A stretch of 64,000 bases of DNA from assembly GCF_044647545.1 (NCBI RefSeq), contig NZ_CP172818.1; one strand, 5' to 3'. The number at the start of each line of letters is the position of its first letter. Positions within the stretch are counted from its first letter, which is position 1. A program made the position numbers and the translations under genes. Source of the stretch: Escherichia coli (GTDB lineage: Bacteria; Pseudomonadota; Gammaproteobacteria; Enterobacterales; Enterobacteriaceae). Below, in pieces: positions 13,386 through 43,578 of this stretch. Under the pieces are notes generated by a model that did not search any database, had not been told where the DNA came from, and saw only the letters and a list, made by a program, of their open reading frames with translations.

Positions 13386-13452
13386 TTGCTTGCTTTCTGT
13401 TAGATTCCGCCGCAAATCTATACTGAATAAAACGGCTAAAAGACGAACCATT

Positions 13453-22206: not shown

Positions 22207-22239
22207 AAAAAACCTGCCATCGCTGGCAGGTTTTTTTTT
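22207..22239 (+). terminator. Rho-independent terminator downstream of typA
   Basis: AAAAAACCTGCCATCGCTGGCAGG followed by TTTTTTTTT. Confidence 0.7.
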
Positions 22240-22405
22240 GCCTGTCGTGAGCGCACACCAATGCGAGTATCTCCCTTATAAGTCTGTGGTTACGTCAATA
22301 GAGAGCTTTGTCACAATTATCTGCAAAGTCATACGCCGTTAATTGCTTTCTTTTTTGGCGTAAGCGTAAGATGCTTCATCTGGTTTAAACCAAAAGGATT
22401 AAACA

Positions 22406-23115
22406 ATGGCGGAGAATCAATCCACCGTAGAAAATGCAAAAGAGAAACTGGATCGGTGGTTGAAAGATGGCATCACCACGCCGGGTGGAAAACTCCCTTC
22501 AGAAAGAGAGCTGGGAGAACTGCTGGGCATTAAACGTATGACGCTGCGCCAGGCGTTGTTGAACCTCGAGGCAGAATCCAAAATCTTCCGTAAGGATTGT
22601 AGGGGTGGTTCGTGACCCAGCCGCGATTTAATTACAGTCCGGAGCTGTCAGCGAGCTTTCAGCGGGCCGCAATTGAGCAAGGACGAGAGCCTTCCTGGGG
22701 GTTTACCGAGAAAAACCGTACCAGCGATATTCCCGAGACGCTCGCGCCACTGATCGCAGTGACACCATCAACTGAACTCTATCGCATCACCGGCTGGGGG
22801 GCGCTGGAAGGACATAAAGTTTTCTATCACGAAACATATATTAATCCTGAAGTTGCTCCGGGCTTTATTGAACAACTTGAAAACCACTCATTTTCTGCAG
22901 TCTGGGAAAAGTGCTACCAAAAAGAGACGGTAGTAAAAAAATTGATTTTCAAACCCGTCAGAATGCCGGGCGATATCAGCAAGTATCTTGGCGGTTCTGC
23001 GGGTATGCCAGCGATCTTAATTGAAAAGCATCGCGCCGACCAGCAAGGCAATATTGTCCAAATAGATATTGAATATTGGCGATTTGAGGCCGTAGACCTC
23101 ATCATTAATCTGTAG
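22406..23115 (+). pseudogene. yihL: GntR-family regulator YihL, split by an apparent 1 bp deletion near 22601-22610
   Basis: ORFs 22406..22615 (69 aa, winged HTH) and 22612..23115 (167 aa) lie in different frames; combined length equals the 236 aa expected for intact YihL. Confidence 0.7.
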
Positions 23116-23122
23116 GTGTTTT

Positions 23123-24103
23123 ATGGTGACAATAAATAACGCAAGAAAGATTCTACAACGTGTCGACACTCTTCCTCTTTATTTACATGCTTATGCCTTT
23201 CATTTAAATATGCGGCTGGAAAGAGTGTTGCCTGCTGATTTACTTGATATCGCAAGTGAAAATAATCTACGTGGCGTCAAAATCCATGTTCTCGATGGCG
23301 AGCGTTTTTCTCTTGGTAATATGGACGATAAAGAACTCTCTGCCTTTGGGGATAAAGCCCGCCGTCTGAACCTTGATATTCATATTGAAACCAGCGCCTC
23401 AGATAAGGCATCTATTGACGAAGCCGTCGCCATCGCGTTGAAAACTGGGGCATCGTCCGTACGTTTTTATCCACGTTATGAAGGTAATTTGCGCGACGTA
23501 TTATCGATTATCGCTAACGACATTGCCTATGTACGGGAAACGTATCAGGACAGCGGCCTGACTTTTACGATCGAGCAGCATGAAGATTTAAAAAGTCATG
23601 AGCTGGTGTCGCTGGTCAAAGAAAGTGAGATGGAATCTCTTTCCTTACTGTTTGATTTTGCGAACATGATCAATGCAAATGAGCATCCCATCGACGCTTT
23701 AAAAACGATGGCACCGCATATTACCCAGGTCCATATCAAAGATGCCTTGATCGTTAAAGAACCGGGTGGCCTGGGTCATAAAGCCTGTATTTCAGGTCAG
23801 GGTGATATGCCGTTCAAAGCGTTATTAACGCACCTTATCTGCCTGGGTGATGATGAGCCGCAGGTGACGGCATATGGCCTGGAAGAAGAGGTTGATTACT
23901 ATGCGCCGGCGTTCCGCTTTGAAGACGAAGATGATAATCCGTGGATCCCTTATCGCCAGATGAGTGAAACACCATTGCCAGAAAATCATTTACTGGATGC
24001 GCGGTTACGTAAAGAAAAAGAAGATGCAATTAATCAGATAAATCATGTGCGTAACGTACTACAACAAATCAAACAAGAGGCAAACCATCTTCTGAACCAC
24101 TAA
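23123..24103 (+). CDS. yihM: Sugar phosphate isomerase/epimerase (xylose isomerase-like TIM barrel) YihM
   Basis: 326 aa ORF; synteny yihL-yihM-yihN. Confidence 0.85.
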   Translation: MVTINNARKILQRVDTLPLYLHAYAFHLNMRLERVLPADLLDIASENNLRGVKIHVLDGERFSLGNMDDKELSAFGDKARRLNLDIHIETSASDKASIDEAVAIALKTGASSVRFYPRYEGNLRDVLSIIANDIAYVRETYQDSGLTFTIEQHEDLKSHELVSLVKESEMESLSLLFDFANMINANEHPIDALKTMAPHITQVHIKDALIVKEPGGLGHKACISGQGDMPFKALLTHLICLGDDEPQVTAYGLEEEVDYYAPAFRFEDEDDNPWIPYRQMSETPLPENHLLDARLRKEKEDAINQINHVRNVLQQIKQEANHLLNH

Positions 24104-24204
24104 TAAGTTTTAACTCATACGCAGTTAATAAAACCATTCCATATGAATGGTCGGTATCTTATTGCCTTTAAAACAGTGATTTTAAAAATCGCTTAGGGGA
24201 TGTT

Positions 24205-25470
24205 ATGCTCACGAAAAAGAAATGGGCGTTATTTAGTCTATTAACACTGTGTGGCGGTACAATTTATAAATTACCGTCGCTGAAAGATGCGTTTTATATC
24301 CCGATGCAGGAATATTTCCATTTGACCAATGGTCAAATTGGTAATGCTATGTCGGTAAACTCATTTGTCACCACAGTGGGCTTTTTTCTGTCTATTTATT
24401 TTGCCGATAAACTACCGCGCAGATACACCATGTCATTCTCACTCATTGCGACAGGATTACTGGGTGTTTATTTGACGACAATGCCGGGGTATTGGGGCAT
24501 CCTCTTTGTCTGGGCGCTATTTGGCGTTACTTGCGACATGATGAACTGGCCGGTCTTGCTCAAGTCGGTAAGTCGATTGGGCAATAGCGAACAACAAGGT
24601 CGGTTGTTTGGCTTCTTCGAAACAGGGCGTGGCATTGTCGATACCGTGGTGGCATTTTCTGCGTTGGCAGTATTTACCTGGTTTGGCAGTGGCTTATTAG
24701 GTTTTAAAGCAGGCATCTGGTTCTATTCCCTTATTGTGATTGCCGTAGGCATTATTATTTTCTTTGTCCTGAATGACAAAGAAGAGGCACCGTCCGTTGA
24801 GGTGAAAAAAGAAGACGGAGCATCGAAAAACACCAGTATGACCTCGGTGCTGAAAGACAAAACTATCTGGCTTATCGCTTTTAACGTCTTCTTCGTTTAC
24901 GCGGTTTACTGTGGCCTGACATTCTTCATTCCATTCCTGAAAAACATCTATCTATTGCCCGTTGCGCTGGTGGGGGCTTACGGCATCATTAACCAATACT
25001 GTCTGAAAATGATTGGTGGACCGATTGGTGGCATGATTTCAGATAAGATCCTGAAATCGCCAAGTAAATATCTATGCTACACCTTTATCATTAGTACCGC
25101 TGCGCTCGTACTGTTGATTATGCTGCCGCACGAAAGTATGCCGGTCTATTTAGGGATGGCATGTACGCTGGGCTTTGGCGCGATAGTCTTTACACAGCGA
25201 GCCGTATTTTTTGCACCTATCGGCGAAGCAAAAATTGCTGAAAATAAAACAGGTGCGGCGATGGCGTTGGGTAGCTTTATTGGTTACGCTCCGGCGATGT
25301 TCTGCTTCAGTCTGTATGGCTACATTCTGGATTTAAATCCGGGGATTATTGGCTACAAAATCGTGTTTGGCATTATGGCCTGCTTCGCATTCAGTGGTGC
25401 GGTGGTTTCCGTAATGCTGGTTAAGCGTATTAGCCAACGTAAGAAAGAGATGCTGGCGGCTGAAGCTTAA
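24205..25470 (+). CDS. yihN: MFS transporter YihN
   Basis: 421 aa ORF with ~12 hydrophobic segments. Confidence 0.85.
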   Translation: MLTKKKWALFSLLTLCGGTIYKLPSLKDAFYIPMQEYFHLTNGQIGNAMSVNSFVTTVGFFLSIYFADKLPRRYTMSFSLIATGLLGVYLTTMPGYWGILFVWALFGVTCDMMNWPVLLKSVSRLGNSEQQGRLFGFFETGRGIVDTVVAFSALAVFTWFGSGLLGFKAGIWFYSLIVIAVGIIIFFVLNDKEEAPSVEVKKEDGASKNTSMTSVLKDKTIWLIAFNVFFVYAVYCGLTFFIPFLKNIYLLPVALVGAYGIINQYCLKMIGGPIGGMISDKILKSPSKYLCYTFIISTAALVLLIMLPHESMPVYLGMACTLGFGAIVFTQRAVFFAPIGEAKIAENKTGAAMALGSFIGYAPAMFCFSLYGYILDLNPGIIGYKIVFGIMACFAFSGAVVSVMLVKRISQRKKEMLAAEA

Positions 25471-25475
25471 TTAAT

Positions 25476-25553
<78 letters not shown>

Positions 25554-25560
25554 TTTCACA

Positions 25561-26253
25561 TCAGAAGAAATACTTCGTCCCGATACGAATCTGGTTTTGC
25601 TCGCGGTGGTACGGTTCGACATTACGATCTAACCAGCGCAATTCAATATAGGGCAACCAGTGCTCATTAATGCGATAACGGAAGGTGTTAGTGATTTCCC
25701 AGTGATGCTTCGTACCATTGCTGCTATTGAAATCATTAATGTTATAAAAATAATGCGGTTCAAAGGTATATGAGAACTTATCGGTAATAATAAAGTTCCA
25801 GTAGTTGCCAATCTCGTAGCTGTCATTATTATCCAGATCACCGTTCAAATCGGTTGAGCTGTAGTTATTATGGTTAAAACGATTACGTACCGTCAGGTTA
25901 AACCATGGAGTAAATTTGTAGTTAACATCCAGATAAACAGCACCACCCGAACCGATACTCTTATCATTAATTAAGCCACCGGGCTGGATGGTTAATTTAT
26001 CGGTTGGTTTGAATAACGGATACCAACCTTCGATTTCGTTATATCCATGTTTGAGTTCATCTTCTCGCTGAAAGGTGTAGGTATTGGTTAACATAATACC
26101 CGCGCCCATATCGAAGTTATAACCCACACGTAGCATAACCTCGCCCTGATCGGAGGCGAGATTATATGCCTCCCTGTTTTCGACGTATGCGCCAGCAAAT
26201 ACCGAGGCAGAGGTCAGAGAGGATAATAGAATTATTGCATTAATCTTTTTCAT
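25561..26253 (-). CDS. ompL: Outer membrane porin OmpL
   Basis: 230 aa from MKKINAIILLSSLTSASVFA (signal peptide) ending in C-terminal Phe (..KYFF), beta-barrel-like composition. Confidence 0.85.
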   Translation of the reverse strand: MKKINAIILLSSLTSASVFAGAYVENREAYNLASDQGEVMLRVGYNFDMGAGIMLTNTYTFQREDELKHGYNEIEGWYPLFKPTDKLTIQPGGLINDKSIGSGGAVYLDVNYKFTPWFNLTVRNRFNHNNYSSTDLNGDLDNNDSYEIGNYWNFIITDKFSYTFEPHYFYNINDFNSSNGTKHHWEITNTFRYRINEHWLPYIELRWLDRNVEPYHREQNQIRIGTKYFF

Positions 26254-26319
26254 AATAAGTCCATTTTTAAACGTAGGGAGGCCGCCACCCACCAGGATGG
26301 AAATAGCGGCTATTGACAT

Positions 26320-27729
26320 TTATAACGTTACGGAAGCCGTTTTTTCTTCTGTCGCCATCTCTTTATTTTTGCGTTGGTTGATTTCCTCAATAATCAATGC
26401 AAACCGTTTTTCATTGAGTGTGTAAAAGAATCCCATCGTCAATGCAGCAATAATTGCCAGTGCACAAGGCCAGATAAAAATGAGCTGACGCAAACCCTGT
26501 AATGTCGCATCACTTTGCGCGATGTTGGGAACATAACCGATTTGCGTCAGCATAATGCCTGGCAAGAAGCCAGCAAGTGCGGCAGAAATTTTACGAAAGA
26601 AGGTATAACCGGTATAAACAGAACCTTCGGCACGAATACCGGTTTTCCATTCACCGTAATCTACGGTATCTGGCACCAGTGCCCAGTTCAGGCTGTTTAC
26701 AAAGGCCGTGCCAAAAAAGGCGACACAAGAGAACATGACGAAAGTGAAAGAGTTACTTCCCCAGAAATAATTCAGGATATCACCAACCGCCCATAGCACC
26801 ATGCCAGCTAAATAAACCTGTTTTTTACCAAAACATTTTACAGTTAATGGCACCAGTAATACGCCGACGAGGATACATCCCATACTGAAAAATCCCATCC
26901 ACGACAATAAATTAATATCATTCAGCACATACTGGGTGTAATAGACCTGAATCGCCAGTTTGATATTAAATGCCGCCAGGGTACACAGGTTAGCAATGCA
27001 CAAAACCAGCAATGGCGGATTACGAAATATCGCGCAAAAAGATTTGAGAATACTGGCTTTATGTCCGGTTGGCGTCGTGTCTACATAATGCTCTTTGACG
27101 CCTCTGTAGCACAGCATCATAAAAATAAAGCCACCAATGGAGAACATCAGTGCCGCGCAGGCATAACCGACGGTGGAGTCAGAAAAAAGCGACTGCAATG
27201 GAATAAATGCTACGGTACAAATCAATAGCCCTATGGTTGCGCCGCCCTGGCGGTAAGCCGCAAGCTGCGCGCGCTCATTCGGGTTTTTGGTAATTGCCGG
27301 GATCATCGCGCCATACGAGCAGTTCATCAGACTGTATGAAAGTCCAAACATCATAAACAGCGCGGTGGCAATCGTCGTTTTAACCGGCAAACTAAAAGTG
27401 GTGGCGATAAACTGGAGCGTTGCAATTAACGCCGCCGGAACCGCTGCATATAAAATAAAGGGACGAAATTTGCCTTTAGGCCCAATATTTTTCCGCGAGT
27501 CGAGTAAAAATCCGGTGAGCATATCGGTAAATGCGGTAAAAAACTTCGCCACCAGAAAGATAATCCCGCCATAGTAAGCAGGCATCCCTAATTCATCGGT
27601 ATAAAATTTGAGGAGATACAGAGTACCGATGCAGAGCATTAAATTCGAACCGACGTCGCCCATACCATAGGCGATTTTTTCCCGCAGATTCAGTCTTAAT
27701 GTCAGTGGATTATGGTCAGACATAATCAC
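26320..27729 (-). CDS. yihO: GPH-family sulfoquinovose importer YihO
   Basis: 469 aa ORF, sugar:cation symporter motifs (MGDVGSN, ~12 TM); first gene of the sulfoquinovose cluster by synteny. Confidence 0.85.
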   Translation of the reverse strand: MIMSDHNPLTLRLNLREKIAYGMGDVGSNLMLCIGTLYLLKFYTDELGMPAYYGGIIFLVAKFFTAFTDMLTGFLLDSRKNIGPKGKFRPFILYAAVPAALIATLQFIATTFSLPVKTTIATALFMMFGLSYSLMNCSYGAMIPAITKNPNERAQLAAYRQGGATIGLLICTVAFIPLQSLFSDSTVGYACAALMFSIGGFIFMMLCYRGVKEHYVDTTPTGHKASILKSFCAIFRNPPLLVLCIANLCTLAAFNIKLAIQVYYTQYVLNDINLLSWMGFFSMGCILVGVLLVPLTVKCFGKKQVYLAGMVLWAVGDILNYFWGSNSFTFVMFSCVAFFGTAFVNSLNWALVPDTVDYGEWKTGIRAEGSVYTGYTFFRKISAALAGFLPGIMLTQIGYVPNIAQSDATLQGLRQLIFIWPCALAIIAALTMGFFYTLNEKRFALIIEEINQRKNKEMATEEKTASVTL

Positions 27730-27765
27730 TCCTTATAACGCCCCGCAGGGCGTTGTTTATTATAA

Positions 27766-29187
27766 TTACGCCGTGCGTTTACGGGCTTCTATCTCTTCAA
27801 CAATGCGGACGTACATCTTCTCGTTCAGACTGTAGAAGCAACCCATTGCCACGATGGTGACTACTGCCAGTGCGCTTGGGTAGATGAAGATCAGTTGGCG
27901 CAACCCTTCGATAGTGTGGTCAGCCTGGGCGACGTTTGGCACATAGCCGATTTGCGTCAGCATCCAGCCTGGGAAGAAACCTGCCAGCGCCTGAGATACT
28001 TTGCGAAAGAAGGTGAAACCGGTGTAGACCGTACCTTCCGAACGCACACCGGTGCGCCACTCGCCGTACTCGACGGTGTCGGAAACCAGCGCCCAGTTCA
28101 GGCTGTTAACAAACGCTGAGCCGAAGAATGCCAGGCAGGAGAACGCCACGAAGCTGACCGAACCGCCGCCAAAGAAATAGTTGAGCAGATCGCCAAGCAC
28201 CCAAATCAGCAGGCCGCCGATATAGACCTTCTTCTTACCAAAACGTCTGACTGCGCCGGGCATCAGGAACACGCCGATGAAAATACAGCCCATGCTGAAA
28301 AATCCCATATATGACAACAGGATGGGATCGTTGAGCACGTACTGGGTGTAATAGACCTGAATGGCGAGCTTGACGTTAAACGCCCCTAAAGTGCAGAGGT
28401 TGGCAATACACAGAATGAACAGTGGGCGGTTACCAGCAATCGCGCGGAAAGACTGCAACAAGCCAGGCTTTTTTTGCGCCGGATTGGTAGGTTGGGTTTC
28501 GACATAACGCTCTTTCACGCCCGAGTAGCAGATCCACATAAACAGCAGGCCGAACAGTGAAAACAGCGTGGCGGCGAAGATATAGCCAAGTTGCTGATTA
28601 CCTTCGATAAGATTCATAACCGGCACGAATCCCACCGTACACAGCAGCAGGCCTAATGTAGCGCCACCCTGACGCCATGCTGCCAGCGATGCACGTTCGT
28701 TGGGGTTTTTAGTAATAGCGGGGACCATCGCGCCATACGAGCAGTTCATCATGCTGAAAAACAGTCCGTAAAGCATAAACAGGATGGTGGCCATCACCGT
28801 TTTACCGGTGACATCGAACGGCGTACCGATAAAGTTGGCGATCGCCAGCAGGGTGACCGGGAATGACGCATACAGAATAAAAGGACGGAACTTGCCTTTT
28901 GGGCCGATCTTGCGTCGGGAATCCAGCATGATGCCTGTTCCCATATCGGTAAACGCAGTAAAGAATTTTGAAATCAAAAAGATAATGCCGCCATAGGTGC
29001 CAGGCAGCCCCAGAACGTCGGTATAAAACTTCAAAAGATAAAGCGTACCAATATCCAGCAGGATGTTAGAGGCCAGGTCGCCAATACCGTAAGAGAGTTT
29101 CTCTTTAAAGGGCAGGCGTAAAGTTGCTGGATCTTCCGTTGTGATGTGACTCATCGTTGTTCTCCCTTTGCCCGTGAGTTTCCCCAC
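27766..29187 (-). CDS. yihP: GPH-family transporter YihP (paralog of YihO)
   Basis: 473 aa ORF; strongly similar to the YihO ORF in this window (e.g. LYLLKFYTD, GGATxGLL, FNxKLAIQVYYTQYVLND). Confidence 0.85.
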   Translation of the reverse strand: MGKLTGKGRTTMSHITTEDPATLRLPFKEKLSYGIGDLASNILLDIGTLYLLKFYTDVLGLPGTYGGIIFLISKFFTAFTDMGTGIMLDSRRKIGPKGKFRPFILYASFPVTLLAIANFIGTPFDVTGKTVMATILFMLYGLFFSMMNCSYGAMVPAITKNPNERASLAAWRQGGATLGLLLCTVGFVPVMNLIEGNQQLGYIFAATLFSLFGLLFMWICYSGVKERYVETQPTNPAQKKPGLLQSFRAIAGNRPLFILCIANLCTLGAFNVKLAIQVYYTQYVLNDPILLSYMGFFSMGCIFIGVFLMPGAVRRFGKKKVYIGGLLIWVLGDLLNYFFGGGSVSFVAFSCLAFFGSAFVNSLNWALVSDTVEYGEWRTGVRSEGTVYTGFTFFRKVSQALAGFFPGWMLTQIGYVPNVAQADHTIEGLRQLIFIYPSALAVVTIVAMGCFYSLNEKMYVRIVEEIEARKRTA

Positions 29188-29199
29188 GGGCGGATGTGA

Positions 29200-31236
29200 T
29201 TAGATGCTTTTTAACGACGCGAACAGTGCCGCCCATTCGCTATCGGCGCGATAAAAGACCGGCGGTTTACCGATGGGCGCATTAACGGTAACTTCCCCGC
29301 CCCGGAACGCTTCACCCGTCCAGGCATGGACCCAGTTATCCTCCGGCAGATAGAGCGTCCAGTCGCTACGGCCTTCTTCATGCACCGGAGCGACCAGAAT
29401 GTCGCGGCCTAACAGGTACTGATATTTCAGGGTGTAGGTCTGCGCGTCGTCTTCGTAATGCAGGAACAGCGGGCGCATAACCGGCAGGCCGGACTTCGCA
29501 TTCAGCGCGACGGCCTCTTTCAGGTAAGGTTTCAGGGTGGTGAAGACGGTGGTCATACGGGCAAAATGGGCGATGGTTTCCGCGTCGCCGTCAAACTGCC
29601 AGTTGTCGCCAGGACGGTTACCTTCGTGGGTGCGCATCATCGGCGTGAAGGCGCTGAAATCGCACCAGCGCAGCAGCAGCTCTTTGCTGCGCTTCATCTC
29701 AAACAGGGTGGTGTAACCGCCAATATCGCTGTGATGCAGGCCATGTCCGGTCATTGCCAGCGACAGCGCCGCCGGGACAACCGACGCCAGGCCATCGTCG
29801 AGACTCCAGTCGACGTTCTGGTCGCCCGCCCACATCATGGTGGAGTATTTCTGGCTACCGGTAGAACCGGCGCGCATAAAGAAAAGGATCTCGCCAAGCT
29901 TGCCCGTTTCTTCAAGGGCTTCGTAGTTACATTTCGCCCACAGTGCGGGCCAGGCGTTATGCATAATTTCCGCGCTGACGCCGTTATGCAGGTAAGTGTC
30001 GGTGGGCAGATACTCGCCGAAGTCAGCCATCCAGCCGCCGCAGCCGAGTTCAATCATGTTCTTTTTGATCACTTCCTTGAACCAGGCGTAGGCTTCTGGA
30101 TTGGTGAGATCGACAACGCCGCCATAGAACTCGCCAAACTCCACCAGATAGTCGCCGCCAGAGGCATCTTTTGCCAGATAGCCGTGTGAAGCCGCCTCGG
30201 CGCAGAGGTCCTTATCGCTGGCAACATACGGGTTGATGTAGGCGAGGAACTGCACGCCTTCTTTGTTCCACTGTTTAATACGCGAATCCAGTTGCGGATA
30301 GTTTTCGCTGTTCCACTTCCAGTTCCACATCACACGTTTACCAAACGAGGTCATACGGATCCCGGACCAGTCCTGCGCCCAGATGCCGTTGACCTTCACG
30401 CCCGCGTTACGCATGGTGTCCAGTTTCTTCTGGCACACCTCAGTGCCGCCCTGAATGCCGAGCGTTACCCCGTCATAAATCCAGTCGGGCAGTTCTGGCT
30501 GGCGTCCCAGCAGGGCAGTTAATTTTTCCAGCAGGGAGATGTATGTATCAGCACATTCAAAACGCAGCGTTGCTTTGTCTTCCCACAGCGCCAGTTCATG
30601 GTATTCCGGGGCGCTAAAGTCGAAGTTCATGTAGCAACTGTTATCAACATGGCAGTAATACTTCTGCGTGCTGACAAACGTAGGCTGTGGGAAGAAAGTC
30701 CAGTAATAGTCGCCGCCCGCGTTCTCTTTGCAGTCGGCCTGCCAGGTGACATAGGTTTGCTTGTTGCGACCAACGCCTTGTTCACTGGTCCATAGCGGGA
30801 ACGGTTTGCCGCGCAGATCAAAGTAGGAGAATTGTTCACCGCAGCCGTAGATATGGTCCTCTGGTTGAGCGGCAAGGCGCAGCCAGATACGGTTGTGGTT
30901 AAGGTTGTCGTTTTGTAGTTCCAGCAATAAACGGCCCTGTTCGTCGGCAGAGATACGCAGCGTGGCGCTAATGTCAGAACCACGGCTGAAATGGATTAAC
31001 CAACCATCCGGTGACTGGCTGACGATGGCGTCGGTAAGCGCAATTTTCTCCTGTAGTTTATCTTTAATGCTGAAATTGCCGCGGAACATATCGATATCCG
31101 CAATACCTGAACCAATCCATAAACAAGGATTATCTTTGCTATGGGTTAAAATAAGACGCTGTTGAAAATGTAGGGTAAAACTGTCGTTATTCTGATGAAA
31201 CTGAAAATCTGGTAATTGTGGGCGTGGCGTATCCAT
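29200..31236 (-). CDS. yihQ: Sulfoquinovosidase (GH31 alpha-glucosidase family) YihQ
   Basis: 678 aa ORF with GH31-type catalytic region (GIWAQDWSG, WMADFGE). Confidence 0.9.
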   Translation of the reverse strand: MDTPRPQLPDFQFHQNNDSFTLHFQQRLILTHSKDNPCLWIGSGIADIDMFRGNFSIKDKLQEKIALTDAIVSQSPDGWLIHFSRGSDISATLRISADEQGRLLLELQNDNLNHNRIWLRLAAQPEDHIYGCGEQFSYFDLRGKPFPLWTSEQGVGRNKQTYVTWQADCKENAGGDYYWTFFPQPTFVSTQKYYCHVDNSCYMNFDFSAPEYHELALWEDKATLRFECADTYISLLEKLTALLGRQPELPDWIYDGVTLGIQGGTEVCQKKLDTMRNAGVKVNGIWAQDWSGIRMTSFGKRVMWNWKWNSENYPQLDSRIKQWNKEGVQFLAYINPYVASDKDLCAEAASHGYLAKDASGGDYLVEFGEFYGGVVDLTNPEAYAWFKEVIKKNMIELGCGGWMADFGEYLPTDTYLHNGVSAEIMHNAWPALWAKCNYEALEETGKLGEILFFMRAGSTGSQKYSTMMWAGDQNVDWSLDDGLASVVPAALSLAMTGHGLHHSDIGGYTTLFEMKRSKELLLRWCDFSAFTPMMRTHEGNRPGDNWQFDGDAETIAHFARMTTVFTTLKPYLKEAVALNAKSGLPVMRPLFLHYEDDAQTYTLKYQYLLGRDILVAPVHEEGRSDWTLYLPEDNWVHAWTGEAFRGGEVTVNAPIGKPPVFYRADSEWAALFASLKSI

Positions 31237-31554
31237 AAATAATCTCCATAGAGTATAAAGCTAATATTTCATGCCATCCTGTTGTTACAGGTTTCATTAA
31301 TTAAAGATTGTGTGCTATAAATAAAACCCCATAAGTGATATATAAAAACTTTTTCAGCCCGGCGGATTGCCGCCATTTTTAACCAAAAATGCCAGTTACA
31401 ATAATAACTAACAATAAACGGAGCAGAATCCAGCCGGGAATTCCCATCCCTTTTATCAACATAGAACCGGAGGCAATCAGCAACAAAAAGACCATCACAC
31501 GGAACACTTTGACTGAAAGCGTTTATGCACATATCTCCAACAAGCGAACCGAGA

Positions 31555-31945
31555 ATCAGGAAAACAAAAAACACCAGTTAAAAAAAGAAACATCAAAATC
31601 CCCCCCCCCCGCCCCCCCCGCCCCCCTTTTTGGGGAAAAAAAGGGTCCGAGGCCCCGAATCCCCCGGGCCCAATTCCAGCATACCTACACCCCCGCCCCG
31701 CCCCCCGCCCCGCTCGCCGCTACTCGCCGATACGCCGCGACCATAACGTCAAAACGACAGACAAGAAATAAACATAAAAAAAAAAAAAAAGAAAAGGATC
31801 CCCCTACCCATTAAAAACGTACATACAAACACACAAACAAACAACAAAAAAAAAAATAACGCCCCCCCAACACAAAAAAAAAAACCCCAACAAAAAGAAA
31901 AAAAAAAAAAAAAAAAAAAAAAACACCCCCCAAAAAAAAAAAAAA
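31555..31945. other. Anomalous low-complexity tract (A+C only; homopolymer runs of C and A up to ~26 nt)
   Basis: Directly visible: CCCCCCCCCCCGCCCCCCCCGCCCCCC, AAAAAAAAAAAAAAAAAAAAAAAAAA and similar; G nearly absent for ~250 bp; no plausible coding frame. Confidence 0.9.
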
Positions 31946-32008
31946 CATAATATTTCCTGTTGTGTAAATACAACCCTAAACAATGATCTCGTTCTTTTCT
32001 TAATAAAA

Positions 32009-32920
32009 TTAATTGTGCTGCCCGTGAATATTAAAAAACAGGCGGTGCGTTTTTCCTGGTTCCAGTAATAATAAGTCGATACCTGAATTAAAGGCGTTAG
32101 GCGGGCAACTCATAGGTTCAACTGCCAGTCCCTGACGCTGTAATTTTTCTCCGCTATAAACCTGCACCCAGGGTTGATCGGAACAGAGGCTCACCGAAAG
32201 CGCCTGTTGTGGATGGGTAATGGTTATTTCCCACAGATCATTAGCGGTTTTAAAGGTATGGTCTATTTTTGTCGCGGCTATTTTTGTCGCCCGCGTGAAA
32301 TTTAAATTCAGCTCATCAACGTGGTGAAGCGTTGTCGGATTTGCGTGCTCATCGACGGCATAAACCTGTTCTGCCGGAAGCTGGAAAAGATAGTCATCAA
32401 CAGATGTTAAGTTGCAGGTTAAATAAGGATGAATACCCACACCATAAGGTGCGGTCACAGTACCAATATTCTGGCTTGCGATCTCAACGGAAAGGCCCGT
32501 GCGAGCGTTGAGCGAATAAACAACCTGCGAAGCCAGCATAAACGGATAGCCGTAACTGGGCGGCAGAAAAGCTGTCAGGGTAACGCTGGTGGCGGTTAAT
32601 TCGCTAATTTGCCAGTCACGCCAGGCAAGCAGCCCGTGAATAGCGGCTTTTGAACCATGTTCATTAATGGGTAACTGATATTCCTGCCCCTGATAGCGAT
32701 AACAGCCGTTGGCGATCCGGTTCGGCCACGGAATAAGCACTTTACCCAGATGCGCCAGCGGCATCTCTTCGGGTTTGTGCGGGATGACTAAATGACAACC
32801 CTGAAAGGTTAATTCAGCCAGACCAGCACCAACCGTCACGATAGTCGCGTGATAATCCCCCGCGGCAAGTGAAACGGTTTGTCCACTGCAATGCATGTTG
32901 GTGATTTGCATACGAGGCAC
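32009..32920 (-). CDS. yihR: Aldose 1-epimerase family protein (sulfoquinovose mutarotase) YihR
   Basis: 303 aa ORF; synteny between yihQ and yihS. Confidence 0.85.
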   Translation of the reverse strand: MPRMQITNMHCSGQTVSLAAGDYHATIVTVGAGLAELTFQGCHLVIPHKPEEMPLAHLGKVLIPWPNRIANGCYRYQGQEYQLPINEHGSKAAIHGLLAWRDWQISELTATSVTLTAFLPPSYGYPFMLASQVVYSLNARTGLSVEIASQNIGTVTAPYGVGIHPYLTCNLTSVDDYLFQLPAEQVYAVDEHANPTTLHHVDELNLNFTRATKIAATKIDHTFKTANDLWEITITHPQQALSVSLCSDQPWVQVYSGEKLQRQGLAVEPMSCPPNAFNSGIDLLLLEPGKTHRLFFNIHGQHN

Positions 32921-32978
32921 CTTTATTGAATAACGACATACCCGGCATGTAGCCTGATATGCCGTTATTTCAGCTCAG

Positions 32979-34220
32979 TTATTTCGCATTCACGTCCAGC
33001 AGACCCGCCGCAACTGCCGGAGCCAGGCCTGGCGCTAACGGGATACGCGGGATCACCAGGCAATGCAGCAGGTGATAAATATCCTGTTTGCCGTCCCAGA
33101 CTTTGGTGGTGACCTTATTGTCCGCATCCAGCTCCTGCCACCAGGAACCATTTTCATAGTCCATCAGGTACTTAATGCAGTACTCCCACCATGTCTGATA
33201 CCAGGTTTCGTACTGGCGATCGCCGGTGACGGTGTAGAGCGCGTAAGCCGTACCCATCGCCTCGACGATAGGCCAACGCACACGTTCGCGAACGACCGGT
33301 TTTCCTTCCCAGTCAACGGTATAAACAATCCCGTCCGCACCATCGGGCGCCCAGGCATCGCGCACGGTGGCGTTGAACAGACCTTTGGCATCTTCTAACA
33401 GCCAGGCTGGCGGCTGTTCGCCGCGGGCTTCCAGGGCGGCATGGATGTGCAGCATTAAACGACCCCACTCGATCCAGTGGCCTGGCGTGCCTCCGAATGC
33501 GCGGAAGCGGTGCGCCGGGTTATCTTTGTTGTAATCCGGCAGCGGATTCCACTGGGTATCGAAGTGCTCGTTAACGCGATAATGATTATTTCTGGCGACG
33601 TCGTGGATAATGACGGAAGCCACGCGAATCGCGCGATCCAGCCATTTTTTGTCATGGGTGACGTCATAGACAATCAGGAAGGCTTCCACCGCGTGCATAT
33701 TGGCATTGCCGCCGCGATACTCTTCGGTTTTGCTGAAGGCTTCATCCCAGGACTCCAGGCACATCTGCTCTTCTTCGCTCCAGAAGTATTTCTCGATAAT
33801 TTCAATGGTGTAATCGAGCAGCTTGCGCGCTTCCGGGTGACCCGTTGTGACGGCACTGGCGGCACCCAGCAGGGCAAAGAAATGTTGATAGCCCTGTTTG
33901 GAGGCATCCACCACGCCCTCGTCATTCACACAGGCATACCAGCCGCCATATTTTTTATCGCGCAGTGCGCCATTCATGGCTTTGATACCGTGATCAACCA
34001 ACGAGTAAGCGCCAGGGCGGCCCATCGCCGCAGCAACGGAATAAACGTGCAGCATACGGGCGGTGATCCACAGATGCGTGCCCATCTCTTCTTTGATTTG
34101 CCCTTTATTGCCCAGCCAGCCAAAGCCAGTCGGCACCACGGCATTCTTACCAAAATCAAAGATGCGATCGGTTTCCTGTTCCAGCCAGCGGTTGTGACTT
34201 AAGGTGTTAAACCATTTCAT
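32979..34220 (-). CDS. yihS: Sulfoquinovose isomerase YihS (N-acyl-glucosamine 2-epimerase fold)
   Basis: 413 aa ORF, length and synteny match. Confidence 0.88.
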
Positions 34221-34235
34221 TTTTGTATCCCCATC

Positions 34236-35114
34236 TTAACGGCGTTTAGCCATCATTTCGTCGACGATATCGCCAAGTTGTTGTAATTTCGGTGCGCAAA
34301 CGTCACGCAGCATCAGCTCGTTGTCTGGTAAACCGACAACCGATGCCCAGACGGCACGACCAGCCAGGAAGCCCGATGCACCCGCTGTCATTGCCACGCG
34401 TACGGCACGCGGGAACAGTTTTTCGTCGACACCGGAAGAAAGTATCACCCACGGCATATTGATATGGTCATTCAGACGTTGTGAAGCACTGAGAAGCTCT
34501 TGTTGCGGACCTTTACCGTAAAGCGGCATTTCAACTTTGTAGAGGTCAGCGCCACTGTCGCCCAGCTCTTTGGCAGCATCGATGATCGCTTGTTCGCGAT
34601 CGAATTTATCGCCACGACGTGGTGGGCGGACGACTGGCTCAATAATGCTTACCAGGCCGTGTGAGTGGCACAGTTCGTTAAACTCTTTCACCATATCCAG
34701 ACGTTGCTGCGCATCTTCATCACTACGCCACAGCACCAGCAGTTTTAAGGCTTTGCCACCGTCTTGTTTGATTTGTAGCGGATTGATTTTGCGGTCAATG
34801 ACCACGCTATCTACCGGAATACCGTTGCCAGGAATGAACTCATCGGCGGCGACAATCATGGCGCAACTTTTGGCAATCGCGTTTTGCTCAACCACCTGGC
34901 GGTAACAGAATTGTTGATCTACCAGAATCGCCGAGGCATAAGGCGAGAGGGTCTTCGCCGCGTTAACTTTGAAATCAGTTAAAACGCTATCGGCTACCGG
35001 AGCGGGTGCGCCAGCCGCGGCAAACATCATGCGCATGGCTTCGCGCTGATCGACCGCCAGCATGGCAAAACCGCCCGATGCGCGCGTAATGTCGTTGATG
35101 GTGTACTTATTCAT
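34236..35114 (-). CDS. yihT: 6-deoxy-6-sulfofructose-1-phosphate aldolase YihT
   Basis: 292 aa ORF, class I aldolase-like; synteny. Confidence 0.88.
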
Positions 35115-35137
35115 TCATTTATTCCTTTATCCAGTCG

Positions 35138-36034
35138 TTACATTTTTACTTTGGCAGTCATCCCGGCACTGACACGGACCTGTTCCAGAATGGCGGACCA
35201 GTCCTGGCGACCGCGACCCGCTGCGCGCGCCTGGCTATAAACCTCCCGTGAGGCGGCCCCCAGCGGCATTGGCACATGCAGCTGGTTGGCGACATCAAGG
35301 GCGATACCAAGATCCTTATGGGCAAGATCGATCATGAAGGCGGGAGAAAGATCCCCGCTGAGGACTTTGTTTGGCCAGGAAGTGGTGAAGTGGCCTTTAC
35401 CGGCGGCGGTACCGCTCATCACCTTGACGGCAACATCGAAGGGAAGATTCAGGGCTTCGCACAAAACGGCGGCTTCTGCCGAAAGCGCATTGAGCGCGAT
35501 GCTCATGTAGTTGTTGATGAGCTTAACGCGGATCCCCATGCCCGGACCGCCCGCGTTGATCAACTCACTGCCCATCGCCATCAGGATCGGTGTGGCGCGT
35601 TCAACTTGTTCAGCGGTGCCGCCAGCCAGCAGTAACAGAGTACCGGTAATGGCATTTGCAGAAGTACGGCCTACCGGAACATCCATCATGCTGAAGCCTC
35701 TGGCCTGCATATCAGCAATCAATTTATCGGTTTGCAGTGGGTGGATGGTCGACATATCAATGACCAGCGCATCGGAAGATAAGCTCTCACAGACACCGTT
35801 TTCACCGAACAACACGTGACGCACCAGATCGCCATTCGGCAACATGGTAATGATAAATTCGGCACCTTTAGCGGCCTGCGCCGGGTTGGCGGCGGGAGTC
35901 GCACCTTTGTCTACCAGATGCCGCACAGCTTCGGCGTTCACATCAAAGACGCGAAGTTGATGCCCTTGCTGCAATAAATTGCTCGCCATTGGCGAACCCA
36001 TTTGCCCTAAACCGATAAACGCGATTGCTGCCAT
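35138..36034 (-). CDS. yihU: 3-sulfolactaldehyde reductase YihU (NAD-binding beta-hydroxyacid dehydrogenase family)
   Basis: 298 aa ORF, N-terminal Rossmann motif [10 protein letters not shown]. Confidence 0.9.
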
Positions 36035-36195
36035 AACCCTCTCCTGAATACAGTAATGTCACTTTTTGTCATTTATGACATGCCTTGCTTGTCTGTTTTT
36101 GATCGTATTTGTAATTTATCGTCAAAAAATTGACAGCCGTCACTTTTTAAACAATTGGTGAAATTAAAATGAACGCATCCCAAAATGCTTAAGGA
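36035..36195. promoter_or_regulatory. Divergent yihU/yihV promoter region with repeated TGTCA/TGACA half-sites (candidate CsqR operator)
   Basis: TGTCACTTTTTGTCATTTATGACATG (36056-36081) and TTGACAGCCGTCACTTTTT (36130-36148) contain direct and inverted TGTCA repeats. Confidence 0.5.
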
Positions 36196-37098
36196 ATGAC
36201 CATGATTCGTGTTGCTTGTGTAGGAATTACCGTGATGGATCGCATCTATTACGTGGAAGGATTGCCGACGGAGAGCGGTAAATACGTGGCGAAAAATTAT
36301 ACGGAAGTTGGCGGCGGGCCAGCGGCTACAGCAGCAGTTGCGGCGGCCAGACTAGGTGCGCAGGTCGATTTTATTGGTCGCGTCGGTGACGACGACACAG
36401 GCAACAGCCTGCTGGCAGAGCTGGAATCCTGGGGCGTTAACACCCGTTATACCAAACGGTATAACGAGGCGAAATCTTCGCAATCCGCCATCATGGTGGA
36501 TACCAAAGGCGAGCGGATAATCATTAACTACCCCAGCCCGGACTTGCTGCCTGACGCAGAGTGGTTGGAGGAAATTGATTTCTCTCAGTGGGATGTTGTG
36601 CTGGCGGATGTACGCTGGCACGAAGGTGCTAAAAAAGCCTTCACCCTGGCCCGGCAGGCGGGCGTGATGACTGTTTTGGACGGGGACATTACGCCGCAGG
36701 ATATCAGTGAGCTGGTGGCATTAAGCGATCATGCGGCCTTTTCAGAACCGGGTCTGGCGCGCTTAACGGGGGTGAAAGAGATGGCCAGTGCGCTAAAACA
36801 GGCACAAACGCTCACAAATGGTCATGTCTATGTGACCCAGGGCAGTGCAGGCTGTGACTGGCTGGAGAATGGCGGGCGACAGCATCAACCGGCCTTCAAA
36901 GTTGATGTGGTAGATACCACAGGAGCGGGTGATGTTTTTCACGGCGCATTGGCGGTGGCGCTGGCAACAGGTGGGGATTTAGCGGAGTCAGTCCGCTTCG
37001 CCAGCGGAGTAGCGGCGTTGAAATGCACGCGTCCCGGTGGACGAGCCGGGATCCCTGACTGTGATCAAACCCGATCTTTTTTGTCACTTTTTGTATAA
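36196..37098 (+). CDS. yihV: 6-deoxy-6-sulfofructose kinase YihV (PfkB/ribokinase family)
   Basis: 300 aa ORF; GG motif near N-terminus, C-terminal DTTGAGD motif. Confidence 0.9.
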   Translation: MTMIRVACVGITVMDRIYYVEGLPTESGKYVAKNYTEVGGGPAATAAVAAARLGAQVDFIGRVGDDDTGNSLLAELESWGVNTRYTKRYNEAKSSQSAIMVDTKGERIIINYPSPDLLPDAEWLEEIDFSQWDVVLADVRWHEGAKKAFTLARQAGVMTVLDGDITPQDISELVALSDHAAFSEPGLARLTGVKEMASALKQAQTLTNGHVYVTQGSAGCDWLENGGRQHQPAFKVDVVDTTGAGDVFHGALAVALATGGDLAESVRFASGVAALKCTRPGGRAGIPDCDQTRSFLSLFV

Positions 37099-37107
37099 AA
37101 TGCCAGG

Positions 37108-37917
37108 GTGATGGTTTTTCGAGGAATTTTCATGAGCCTTACCGAACTAACCGGTAACCCGCGGCACGACCAACTCCTCATGCTGATCGCCGAGCGTGGG
37201 TATATGAATATTGATGAGCTGGCAAATCTGCTGGATGTCTCCACGCAGACGGTCCGCCGGGATATTCGTAAATTAAGCGAGCAAGGACTGATTACGCGCC
37301 ATCACGGTGGCGCGGGTCGGGCCTCCAGCGTCGTTAATACGGCGTTTGAGCAGCGTGAGGTTTCGCAAACTGAAGAGAAAAAAGCGATTGCCGAAGCGGT
37401 GGCAGACTATATTCCTGATGGATCGACAATATTTATCACCATCGGTACGACTGTTGAACATGTTGCCCGGGCGTTACTTAACCACAATCATTTGCGGATA
37501 ATCACCAACAGCCTGCGTGTGGCGCATATTCTTTACCACAACCCGCGCTTTGAAGTGATGGTGCCTGGCGGAACGCTGCGTTCCCATAACAGTGGGATCA
37601 TTGGCCCTTCAGCGGCGTCCTTTGTGGCCGATTTTCGCGCCGATTATCTGGTAACAAGTGTAGGCGCAATTGAGAGCGATGGCGCGTTGATGGAGTTTGA
37701 TGTAAACGAAGCTAACGTGGTGAAAACGATGATGGCGCACGCGAGAAATATTCTGCTGGTCGCCGATCACACTAAGTATCATGCTTCGGCGGCGGTTGAA
37801 ATTGGTAACGTGGCACAGGTTACCGCGCTCTTTACCGACGAGCTGCCGCCCGCTGCGCTAAAATCACGCTTACAAGACAGCCAAATTGAAATCATCCTTC
37901 CCCAGGAAGACACGTAG
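37108..37917 (+). CDS. csqR: DeoR-family repressor of the sulfoquinovose operon, CsqR (YihW)
   Basis: 269 aa ORF, N-terminal HTH and DeoR C-terminal sugar-binding domain; true start probably internal. Confidence 0.88.
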   Translation: MMVFRGIFMSLTELTGNPRHDQLLMLIAERGYMNIDELANLLDVSTQTVRRDIRKLSEQGLITRHHGGAGRASSVVNTAFEQREVSQTEEKKAIAEAVADYIPDGSTIFITIGTTVEHVARALLNHNHLRIITNSLRVAHILYHNPRFEVMVPGGTLRSHNSGIIGPSAASFVADFRADYLVTSVGAIESDGALMEFDVNEANVVKTMMAHARNILLVADHTKYHASAAVEIGNVAQVTALFTDELPPAALKSRLQDSQIEIILPQEDT

Positions 37918-39915: not shown

Positions 39916-40901
39916 GCCAGCTTCCAGGGTTGTCACGGGAAACAAGAGAGAGTATCGCTATGTATCACCTTCGGGTTCCACAAACAGAAGAAGAATTAGA
40001 GCGTTACTATCAGTTTCGCTGGGAAATGTTGCGTAAGCCCCTGCATCAACCGAAAGGTTCGGAACGCGACGCGTGGGATGCGATGGCGCATCACCAGATG
40101 GTCGTCGACGAGCAGGGTAATCTGGTGGCGGTAGGCCGACTGTATATTAATGCCGACAATGAAGCGTCCATTCGCTTTATGGCCGTTCATCCCGACGTGC
40201 AGGACAAAGGGTTAGGAACGCTGATGGCGATGACCCTCGAATCTGTGGCGCGTCAGGAAGGTGTTAAGCGCGTGACCTGTAGCGCCCGCGAAGACGCGGT
40301 GGAGTTTTTCGCCAAGCTGGGGTTTGTTAATCAGGGAGAAATCACCACGCCAACCACCACGCCGATTCGCCATTTTTTGATGATTAAACCCGTTGCCACT
40401 CTGGATGATATTTTGCATCGCGGCGACTGGTGCGCGCAGCTGCAACAGGCGTGGTATGAACACATCCCGCTGAGTGAAAAAATGGGCGTGCGCATTCAGC
40501 AATATACCGGGCAAAAATTTATCACCACCATGCCGGAAACAGGCAATCAGAATCCGCATCACACGCTGTTTGCCGGGAGTTTATTCTCGCTGGCAACGCT
40601 CACCGGTTGGGGGCTTATCTGGCTGATGCTGCGCGAACGCCACCTCGGCGGAACGATTATTCTGGCGGATGCGCATATCCGCTATAGCAAGCCGATTAGC
40701 GGCAAACCTCATGCGGTAGCCGACCTTGGTGCCTTAAGCGGCGATCTCGACCGTCTGGCGCGTGGACGAAAAGCACGGGTGCAGATGCAAGTAGAAATCT
40801 TTGGCGACGAGACGCCGGGTGCAGTGTTTGAAGGCACGTATATCGTTCTGCCCGCGAAGCCATTTGGCCCGTATGAAGAGGGCGGGAACGAAGAAGAGTA
40901 G
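39912..40901 (+). CDS. yiiD: GNAT acetyltransferase / thioesterase fusion protein YiiD (FabY)
   Basis: 329 aa ORF with GNAT region ([15 protein letters not shown]) followed by hotdog-like C-terminal domain. Confidence 0.85.
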
Positions 40902-40904
40902 CGT

Positions 40905-41729
40905 TGGCAGGTGCATTGCACTCCTTGCCCCTGTCATGCGGTGATACAACGCTTCACCTTCATCGCAAAGTGGGTCGTATTCAGCGGTAATGATATGTAC
41001 AGGTGGCAAGCCATTGAAATCATCGCGCCAAAGAGGGCTGGCTTCAGGATGCCTGCGTTCAATGCCTGGCAGGTACATCTCAAAGCCGCTCAGTAAAGTG
41101 TCGCGTGTGATGATGTAATCGTGACGATTGCGTATGTAGCTTTCGAAATGCGCAGTCGCATCAAGCATGGGATAAATTAAGATGACCGAGTTGTGCCGGT
41201 TGCCACTCGCCAGCACGCTTTAATCGCAAAGCAGTTACCAGCGCCAGATGTCCGCCCGCACTGTCACCGGCAAGAGTTATCCGTTGTTTATCAACGCCGA
41301 GTCGTTCGGCGTGTTGCCGACTGAATTCTGCACCTCGTTGCGCATCATCATGGGCGGCGGGGAAAGTATGTCCGGTGCCAGCCGATACTGGACGGCAATA
41401 ACCCGACATTGCCCGTAATAGGCTAACTGGCGCAGCTGGTTGTCGTGAGTTGCGAACCCGCCGCTAACAAAACAGCCACCGTAGTAATAAATTATCGTCG
41501 GGAGTAATGTCGGGGCATTCAGCGGTGACACTATTCGTAAGGTCATCGCTTCAAGTTCGATAGTCTGAATATCTACCCGCGTTTCTGTCTCACCCGCAAG
41601 GACAGCGCTGGCGATATAGCCCTCCCTGCGCTGCGCAATACTTTGTTGACGCGATGAGGGGCGACCCGCAGCGATAAACTCTTCGACTAACTCTGCAATT
41701 CCTTTTTCAGTGCCATAGTAGAACTCATT
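40905..41729 (-). pseudogene. Decayed alpha/beta-hydrolase (hormone-sensitive-lipase family esterase, Aes-like) gene remnant
   Basis: Minus-strand fragments in three or more frames: ..IIYYYGGCFVSGGFATHD.. (oxyanion-hole region), ..ITLAGDSAGGHLALVTALRLK.. (GDSAG nucleophile elbow), ..HIITAEYDPLCDEGEALYHRMTGA.. (acid-residue region); no single frame covers the gene and the 3' end runs into yiiD. Confidence 0.6.
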
Positions 41730-41945
41730 TTGCTGTATGAATGTACAGTTTTATACACCCGTTTTTACTGGATGGATACAGGGAAATTCACGGGCGTGAA
41801 AAATCTGGAAAGCGCCTCGCAAATGTAAAGACAAACCCGGCAGAGATGTGGTTTTGCTGGAGCACTATCAGTAAGCTAGTGGTTTCAAGGGTACGTCAAT
41901 GACGTACAGAAGGGGTTTATTTATCTAAGCCAATGGCGTATAATT

Positions 41946-42256
41946 ATGCTCTTCATCGAAACGGAAATTTTTACTGAAGATGTTCAAAAACTGCTGACCG
42001 ACGATGAATTCAGTCGTTTTCAGTTTTTCCTGGCCTTGAATCCTGACTATGGTGAGGTAATACCTGAAACTGGTGGGTTAAGAAAGGTTCGATGGGTGTC
42101 AGGAGGAAGGGGAAACGTGCTGGTGTCAGGGTTATTTACTTTCATCAGGTTAAACATTATGAGATCAGATTACTGCTTATTTATCGTAAGGGTATTAAAG
42201 ATAATATCTCTCCCCAGGAAAAAGCAATGCTCCGGTTGTTAAATACGAGGTGGTAA
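41946..42256 (+). pseudogene. RelE/ParE-superfamily (HigB-like) toxin with an internal frameshift
   Basis: Frame 1 gives MLFIETEIFTEDVQKLLTDDEFSRFQFFLALNPDYGEVIPETGGLRKVRWVSGGRG..; the +1 frame continues ..GKRAGVRVIYF..EIRLLLIYRKGIKDNISPQEKAMLRLLNTRW and stops at TAA directly abutting the antitoxin ATG. Confidence 0.6.
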
Positions 42257-42547
42257 ATGGATAAGGCACTTTTTGAGCGGTTGACTCACAGCATGGCCCA
42301 GATGAATGAAATTATTGAAGGAACGCGACAGCCTTCGCGGACTTTTGAAGTTGATGCTATGAAAATCAAAGAAATACGCCGCGCTTCAGGGTTGTCACAA
42401 TCTAAATTTGCCGATCTTATTTCTGTAAGCGTAGACACGTTGCGTAACTGGGAGCAGGGGCGACGTTCGCCGACCGGGCCTGCAAAGGCTTTGCTGCGAG
42501 CGATTGCCAATGATCCGCAACATGTGCTGCAAGCACTTAACCGTTAG
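42257..42547 (+). CDS. HTH (XRE-family) HigA-like antitoxin
   Basis: 96 aa ORF with HTH region IRRASGLSQSKFADLISVSVDTLRNWEQGRRSP; translationally coupled (TAAATG) to the upstream toxin frame. Confidence 0.7.
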   Translation: MDKALFERLTHSMAQMNEIIEGTRQPSRTFEVDAMKIKEIRRASGLSQSKFADLISVSVDTLRNWEQGRRSPTGPAKALLRAIANDPQHVLQALNR

Positions 42548-43150
42548 AGGCATGGTTATGCCATACAGAAAGCACCAGCATTCAGAACTCCTGTGAAAGC
42601 GGCGTAGTGCCACCTGCTCAGGAGTTTTGCTATGACCCGTAATCAGTGCTGACCGTTGCCACCCTATGATGCGATTAAAAAAACTCATCGTCGCGCCGAT
42701 GATTGACGTCAATGCTATCGGATGATACCGGGGGTGTTCCAGAAAGATCCAACTTTCCCGAACTGTTACCAACAAAATTATAACGATGAGCAAGTTAAGA
42801 CCGGTTGGTAGCAGTACTGACCGGTCTGTGATGGATGATTAATTTCACCTTAAATCCGGGTGCTGTTAGGATGCTGACATTTTTCGGCTACACCATTCAG
42901 ATTATGCAAATAAAGATCCAATCAAAAAATAAACATCCCTGTATATAATATATTTATAGCACCCATATCTCATCCTGGGCGATAACCCAACCATTTTTGA
43001 TTAACAAATGAAACAACTGCAACGTTCTTATTATTTCTGGAAAACGTCTCGCAAAAACAAAACAGCATGCAAAAATCCGCTTTTTTTAAATGATTTTTCG
43101 GCGTAATTTTCGCACATACATTAATGAGTAATATATGTAAGGTATTGGTA

Positions 43151-43369
43151 ATGGCGATGAATACGGTTTTTCTTCATTTATCAGAAGAGGCAATTAAACG
43201 GCTGAACAAGCTTAGGGGCTGGCGTAAGGTTTCACGATCTGCAATTTTACGCGAAGCGGTTGAGCAATATCTGGAGCGGCAGCAATTTCCGGTGCGTAAA
43301 GCAAAGGGTGGCAGGCAAAGGGGGGAGACAGTAGTTGTTGATGATCAGTGTAAGGAGCATAAGGAATGA
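43151..43369 (+). CDS. yiiE: Ribbon-helix-helix (CopG-like) small regulator YiiE
   Basis: 72 aa from MAMNTVFLHLSEEAIKRLNKLRGWRKVSRSAILREAVEQYLERQ inside ORF 43124..43369. Confidence 0.75.
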   Translation: MAMNTVFLHLSEEAIKRLNKLRGWRKVSRSAILREAVEQYLERQQFPVRKAKGGRQRGETVVVDDQCKEHKE

Positions 43370-43578
43370 CAAAAAATTTATTATTCTTGAATATAAAAAC
43401 CAGATGCCCTTATTCTGGTATTAATACAAGGCTGTTTTACTTGAACTTATAATAACTGCAACTGTTACATCATATCTGGAAAACGCCTCGCGAAATACGA
43501 GAGTTTGGAATAGCAGGTGTCGTCATACCCTATGAACTGTAATCCGGGCGACCAGCGCCACCCGGAAAACGTCAGAGA

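Follow-up and report, generated by a model that had tools for sequence, protein, structure and literature searches.

In Escherichia coli, sulfoquinovose (SQ) is degraded through the sulfo-Embden–Meyerhof–Parnas route (sulfo-EMP), which is encoded by the yih cassette. Two forms of this cassette have been defined: a long one, ompL-yihOPQRSTUVW, and a short one, yihTUVW, which is found in Nissle 1917 and other B2 strains (PMC12608037). Genetic, biochemical, and structural work has already characterized the yih sulfo-EMP cluster, with K-12 MG1655 as the prototype, and K-12 has been reported to grow on SQ and to excrete 2,3-dihydroxypropane-1-sulfonate (DHPS) (PMC12608037). In other sulfoglycolysis clusters, namely, the sulfo-EMP variant of Arthrobacter and the sulfo-transaldolase (sulfo-TAL) cluster of Bacillus aryabhattai, permeases of the TauE family have been proposed as C3-sulfonate exporters, whereas in E. 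coli this role has been assigned, putatively, to YihP. Here, the yih cassette was analyzed in a stretch of 64,000 nucleotides of an E. coli chromosome (contig NZ_CP172818.1, assembly GCF_044647545.1), hereafter called the window, in which it occupies 25561–37917 in the arrangement ompL-yihOPQ / yihRSTU / yihV-csqR and thus has the long form.

The ten genes of the window have the same order and orientation as those of K-12 MG1655, and their chromosomal location, flanked by typA/yihLMN and yihX, is also shared. The short cassette also lies at this locus and has the same four distal genes, but the window has ompL and yihOPQRS intact in addition. The difference from K-12 lies between yihQ and yihR, where K-12 has an unrelated spacer of approximately 150–200 nt, 198 nt in MG1655, whereas the lineage of the window has approximately 1 kb with a gene for a TauE/SafE permease. 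K-12 ceases to be homologous to the TauE-bearing allele at two points, 58 nt upstream of yihQ and in the last yihR codons, of which the last two or three, at the indel junction, differ. An eleven-gene cassette of this kind is carried by FDAARGOS_497/ST648-type strains, O157:H7, and Salmonella enterica, with which the window shares the flank types and a tract colinear with the permease gene. Outside this tract, the cluster DNA is identical to that of E. coli FDAARGOS_497 (NZ_CP033850), and in the window the TauE frame is destroyed. It was concluded, with a probability of roughly 90%, that the region is the long yih cassette in its Salmonella-type eleven-gene version and that the tract at the position of the eleventh gene reflects corruption, technical or in silico, and is not an evolved pseudogene.

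A garbled TauE/SafE gene between yihQ and yihR

The sequence-only reading had described a disrupted intergenic region between yihQ and yihR. What was found there is instead a garbled copy of a real TauE/SafE gene, colinear with the coding sequence (CDS) of FDAARGOS_497. At 772 nt, the yihQ–yihR interval (31237–32008) falls 271 nt short of that in FDAARGOS_497, and its first ~520 nt align with the gene and its flanks. The alignment is perfect up to 31307, after which small deletions and substitutions appear, followed by a growing smoothing of the sequence into homopolymers; in one place, GCGGTGAAGAAAGCG has turned into GGGGAAAAAAAGG, and one 40-nt stretch of the tract reads CCAGCATACCTACACCCCCGCCCCGCCCCCCGCCCCGCTCG. 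The tract ends in A runs of up to 26 and also contains a C run of 11. Exact identity then returns abruptly at 31947/31948, at the CAT that corresponds to the TauE start codon. Compared with the reference, there are 96 G instead of 235 and 134 T instead of 232, with A and C retained. The substitutions were counted as G>A 21, T>A 17, G>C 12, and T>C 9, a pattern that matches neither deamination nor any spectrum of the transition type, and deletions dominate.

The similarity to the gene was compared with that of shuffled controls. It is strong at 31560–31700 (z 12–13) and at 31700–31830 (z 8–10), and none was detected at 31830–31947 (z below 0). Along the tract, z goes from 13 through 10 to −3, a loss of information in a single direction. 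The TauE protein is still recognizable in fragments such as FRVMVFLLLIASGSMLIKG. No intact TauE/SafE open reading frame (ORF) of ~291 aa was found between yihQ and yihR, the longest minus-strand ORF there being 101 aa and mostly out of frame. Moreover, the tract is absent from all 5426 complete RefSeq E. coli genomes ('distant' BLAST).

An insertion of unrelated low-complexity DNA into the spacer, as implied by the sequence-only reading, would make this a ten-gene cluster of the K-12 type. It could account for the last 118 nt of the tract, where no detectable similarity to anything was found, and would agree with the short, gene-free spacer of K-12. Against it, the first ~520 nt are colinear with the TauE gene (z 8–13), fragments translate to TauE peptide, and the flanks are of the TauE-bearing type, not the K-12 type. 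The colinearity and the shuffle controls rule such an insertion out, and it was given next to no credence.

Other anomalous stretches and the origin of the tract

Outside a few stretches, the whole window shows 0 mismatches per kb to FDAARGOS_497, including both sides of the TauE tract. One of these stretches is a second garbled tract at approximately 56463–57110, which is A+G-rich with A runs of up to 14. It stands in place of a 1395-bp carbohydrate-porin gene found between frvA and rhaM in FDAARGOS_497, and the frvA–rhaM region is 862 nt shorter in the window. The first ~170 nt of the second tract resemble the porin gene (z 10–12) and the remainder does not (z ~0), so that the same left-to-right decay is seen as in the TauE tract; exact identity is abruptly back ~5 nt past the porin stop codon. 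The porin gene is on the strand opposite to TauE, and the direction of decay is the same along the plus strand. The third stretch, 40898–43510, differs from FDAARGOS_497 by a 156-nt deletion directly after fabY and by 36 clustered substitutions or indels, and an alpha/beta-hydrolase gene in it is frameshifted. Here, the same corruption may be present in milder form, or the stretch may belong to a divergent allele. All three stretches fall in DNA that K-12 lacks.

These observations bear on whether the A+C-rich interval could be a genuine evolved pseudogene, in which TauE was lost through an unusual strand-biased loss of G and T together with deletions. The tract does derive from the gene and not from foreign DNA, accessory genes decay in nature, and K-12 shows that the gene is dispensable. 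However, since the flanks on both sides carry no mismatches to FDAARGOS_497, almost no evolutionary time is left, and a decay of the gene by ~40% is implausible. In addition, the decay is monotonic along the plus strand with an abrupt end at the start codon, homopolymers reach 26 A and 11 C, transitions and transversions are mixed, left-to-right decay recurs with another base bias in a second gene, encoded on the opposite strand, and no other complete genome contains the tract. An evolved pseudogene was accordingly considered very unlikely. A model of strand-specific deamination (sense-strand A to I and C to U) was also tried and rejected, as the transversions T>A and G>C are as common as transitions, deletions prevail, and a purine-rich second tract is impossible under it.

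A corrupted sequence was thus retained as the explanation of the TauE tract. Either a decaying read used as a gap filler or an in-silico regeneration of selected genes would fit such corruption. Several points weigh against the overall conclusion. The left edges of the tracts lie ~36 and ~100 nt outside the CDS, off the gene boundaries, so the impression that the damage is delimited by genes comes from the right edges only. The garbled ORFs were not found among ~15 billion public proteins by exact look-up, which speaks for corruption but is a weak test that depends on the choice of start codon by gene callers. Furthermore, the transporter roles on which the functional side of the assignment draws (import by YihO, export by YihP, and export by TauE) are putative even in K-12. 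That the TauE tract and its porin twin are real DNA of a living strain was nevertheless judged extremely improbable. If the tracts were real, they would point to a novel process, acting in one direction, by which particular accessory genes are reduced to low-complexity sequence of two letters and the flanks are spared. Without reads, the stretches at 31.3–31.95, 40.9–43.5, and 56.46–57.11 kb are not interpretable as biology, and at least two of them are non-credible.

The window also differs from FDAARGOS_497 upstream of ompL. There, 22237–25550 carries yihL-yihM-yihN as in K-12, with 0 mismatches to MG1655 over 22765–25587 (2.8 kb), whereas FDAARGOS_497 has the Salmonella-type genes STM4011–4015. 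No complete E. coli genome matches the yihLMN junction above 98.9%, and the mosaic of the window was not seen in RefSeq. This junction was counted among the reasons for reading the tracts as corruption.

Gene content and protein conservation

The features of the cassette are listed in Table 1. The ORF map of 24–40 kb contains eight minus-strand ORFs (25561–31236 and 32009–36034) and two plus-strand ORFs (36196–37917). All ten proteins are full length with zero internal stops, as the sequence-only reading had stated for yihO to csqR. The limits that it gave, 26320–37917, are correct, with the stop codons of yihO and csqR as the two ends, and ompL indeed precedes them, lying just outside the start. 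Its description of the cluster as complete holds for the ten K-12-type genes and fails for the eleven-gene version of this lineage. No known RNAs were found inside the cluster by an Rfam scan.

Table 1. Features of the yih cassette in the window. Gene coordinates use annotated start codons.
Feature	Coordinates	Strand	Assignment and supporting matches
ompL	25561–26253	-	KdgM-family outer-membrane porin; NCBIfam equivalog 'porin OmpL' 473 bits, Pfam KdgM
yihO	26320–27723	-	GPH/MFS_2 symporter, putative SQ/SQ-glycerol importer; TIGR00792 gph 529 bits
yihP	27766–29154	-	GPH/MFS_2 symporter, putative DHPS exporter; TIGR00792 534 bits
yihQ	29200–31236	-	GH31 sulfoquinovosidase; GH31 domain matches, full-length PDB 5aed 'Sulfoquinovosidase' 1616 bits
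TauE/SafE (TSUP) permease gene, garbled remnant	31308–31947 (CDS-equivalent ~31341–31947)	-	A+C-rich low complexity
yihR	32009–32911	-	SQ mutarotase, aldose-1-epimerase family; NCBIfam equivalog PRK15172 615 bits, Pfam Aldose_epim
yihS	32979–34220	-	SQ–sulfofructose isomerase; GlcNAc-2-epimerase fold; PDB 2rgk, 7ag4 'Sulfoquinovose isomerase'
yihT	34236–35114	-	class I sulfofructose-1-phosphate aldolase; DeoC/LacD aldolase family; PDB 7ag1
yihU	35138–36034	-	NADH-dependent sulfolactaldehyde reductase; NCBIfam equivalog 'sulfolactaldehyde 3-reductase' 602 bits (cut-off 348); PDB 6sm7
yihU/yihV divergent control region	36035–36201	.	CsqR-bound spacer in K-12 (literature)
yihV	36202–37098	+	sulfofructose kinase, PfkB family; PDB 7ag6 'Sulfofructose kinase'
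csqR (yihW)	37132–37917	+	DeoR-family repressor of the cluster; DeoR/GlpR family matches

The proteins were aligned with those of K-12 MG1655. The amino-acid identities were 99.4% for YihO, 99.1% for YihP, 99.0% for YihQ, 95.3% for YihR, 99.0% for YihS, 99.3% for YihT, 98.3% for YihU, 98.7% for YihV, and 100% for CsqR (identical over 260 of 261 residues). Thus, the enzymes, transporters, and regulator lie at 95–100%, and the porin OmpL at 93.9%. As none of these identities is low, the identification of the cluster stands. All ten proteins are 100% identical to those of FDAARGOS_497. OmpL, YihR, and YihU score above the cut-offs of their NCBIfam equivalogs, and YihQ, YihS, YihT, YihU, and YihV match solved E. 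coli and Salmonella structures over their full length (Table 1). The two transporters are clear paralogues, as had been proposed, with 65.9% protein identity and ~68–69% DNA identity to each other; the K-12 YihO record is annotated as 'putative sulfoquinovose transporter'.

Conservation extends to the residues that define the activities, with 21/21 checked catalytic or sulfonate-pocket residues conserved across YihQ, YihS, YihV, YihT, and YihU. In YihQ, the sulfonate-pocket residues R301, W304, and Y508 are present together with D405 and D472, reported as the catalytic residues by Speciale et al. 2016. YihS has the catalytic H248 and H383 and the pocket residues R55, Q362, and Q379; YihV has the pocket residues K27, N109, and R138; and YihT has the Schiff-base K193 with A26, S226, S227, and R253. 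YihU retains R123 and the pocket residues N174 and S178, and the predicted product type is DHPS, not sulfolactate. The positions of 19 of the 21 residues were taken from PMC8006165.

The distribution of the cassette was determined by megablast of 26320–37917, to which 4038 of the 5426 complete E. coli genomes matched (74%), chromosomally in every case. The matching genomes annotate yihO, yihP, yihQ (sulfoquinovosidase), yihR, yihS (sulfoquinovose isomerase), yihT, yihU, yihV, and csqR. The ~26% of complete genomes that have no full-length match probably carry mostly the short yihTUVW form. With the identities, the structure matches, and these annotations, the earlier view of the cluster as a known, non-novel sulfo-EMP system is confirmed, and this copy is a near-identical allele.

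Proposed pathway and its regulation

The pathway and regulation scheme, summarized in PMC12608037 and PMC8006165, was transferred to this copy by inference. SQ or its glycerol glycoside would be imported via OmpL and YihO, and the glycoside would be cleaved by YihQ. The SQ anomers would then be interconverted by YihR, SQ would be isomerized to sulfofructose by YihS, and sulfofructose would be phosphorylated by YihV. Cleavage by YihT would yield dihydroxyacetone phosphate, which would enter glycolysis, and sulfolactaldehyde (SLA), which YihU would reduce to DHPS. DHPS would finally be exported, with YihP as the K-12 candidate exporter.

In K-12, CsqR binds the yihU/yihV spacer and the region upstream of yihW (PMC12608037). 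In the window, 164/167 nt of the yihU/yihV control region are the same as in K-12. CsqR would act as a repressor at the divergent promoters of yihU and yihV, as well as at its own, until SQ or SQ-glycerol releases it.

Because K-12 grows on SQ without the TauE gene and the ten genes are intact here, a working core pathway is predicted irrespective of the real condition of the eleventh gene. The opposite case is that the loss of TauE makes the cluster non-functional, for example, through a build-up of DHPS or sulfite. As the gene is conserved at 80–86% across many Enterobacterales and tied to two different sulfoglycolysis clusters, it can be argued to have a real role. However, K-12 without the gene is reported not only to grow on SQ but also to excrete DHPS (PMC12608037), YihO and YihP are intact in the window, and, if the tract is artefactual, the real strain has the gene anyway. 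A non-functional cluster was therefore regarded as quite improbable.

The eleventh gene in other genomes

In FDAARGOS_497, the gene is an 876-bp CDS between yihQ and yihR, annotated as 'sulfite exporter TauE/SafE family protein' and matching Pfam TauE (PF01925) with 121 bits. The best genome matches to the cluster are split into two pieces that together cover only 97% of the query, and their span is 11869 nt, compared with 11598 nt in the window. By 'distant' BLAST, the gene was located at the yihQ–yihR position in 1296 of the 5426 complete E. coli genomes (24%), O157:H7 included, and the yihQ–yihR interval measures ~1041–1044 nt in every record listed that spans it. Salmonella enterica has the same gene between yihR and yihQ with 86% identity, and orthologues with 80–85% identity occur across Enterobacterales.

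In Hafnia, a TauE orthologue with 81% identity lies at the end of a cluster that encodes a LacI regulator, an SSF transporter, an ILVD/EDD dehydratase, an HpcH aldolase, an aldose epimerase, an SGL lactonase, a YihU-like dehydrogenase, and an SDR protein. By comparison with the known pathway of Pseudomonas putida, we infer that this is a sulfo-Entner–Doudoroff-like gene set with a reductase instead of the SLA dehydrogenase. As TauE-type permeases are the proposed C3-sulfonate exporters elsewhere, it is plausible, by association, that the eleventh gene encodes an additional exporter of C3-sulfonate, DHPS, or sulfite. No mention of a TauE-bearing sub-variant was found in the searchable literature, including PMC12608037 and the CsqR phylogeny paper; most subscription papers lie outside this scope, and such an absence is not proof.

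Other features of the window

The first position of the window falls within the 23S rRNA of an rrnA-type operon, and 5S rRNA follows (1–2948). The small RNA genes for Spot 42 (11995–12113) and CsrC (13142–13395) occupy the positions that are usual in K-12. Between rhaD and rhaA there are three tandem naRNA4 (REP/BIME-type) elements (58358–58606), and there is one more downstream of hemN (15639–15716). Extra BLAST pieces appear at these sites because the naRNA4 copy number differs from that of K-12 and FDAARGOS_497. The fdoG frame (46052–49102) is divided into two ORFs (46052–48466 and 48515–49102), with a SECIS_3 element at 48462–48520. Owing to this element, the split was attributed to the selenocysteine UGA that formate dehydrogenase-O normally has, rather than to a defect.

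Implications for the sulfo-EMP cassette

The biological weight of the finding is small, as the system is known and this copy of it is ordinary. Ten genes are assigned to the E. coli cassette in the literature, while approximately a third of the long cassettes (1296/4038), together with those of Salmonella, carry an eleventh. The TauE/TSUP permease encoded by this gene is a candidate for the DHPS export step, which is putative even in K-12. The eleven-gene cassette may thus be an overlooked structural variant in which the permease is the real DHPS exporter, a possibility that was ranked as likelier than the tracts being real DNA.

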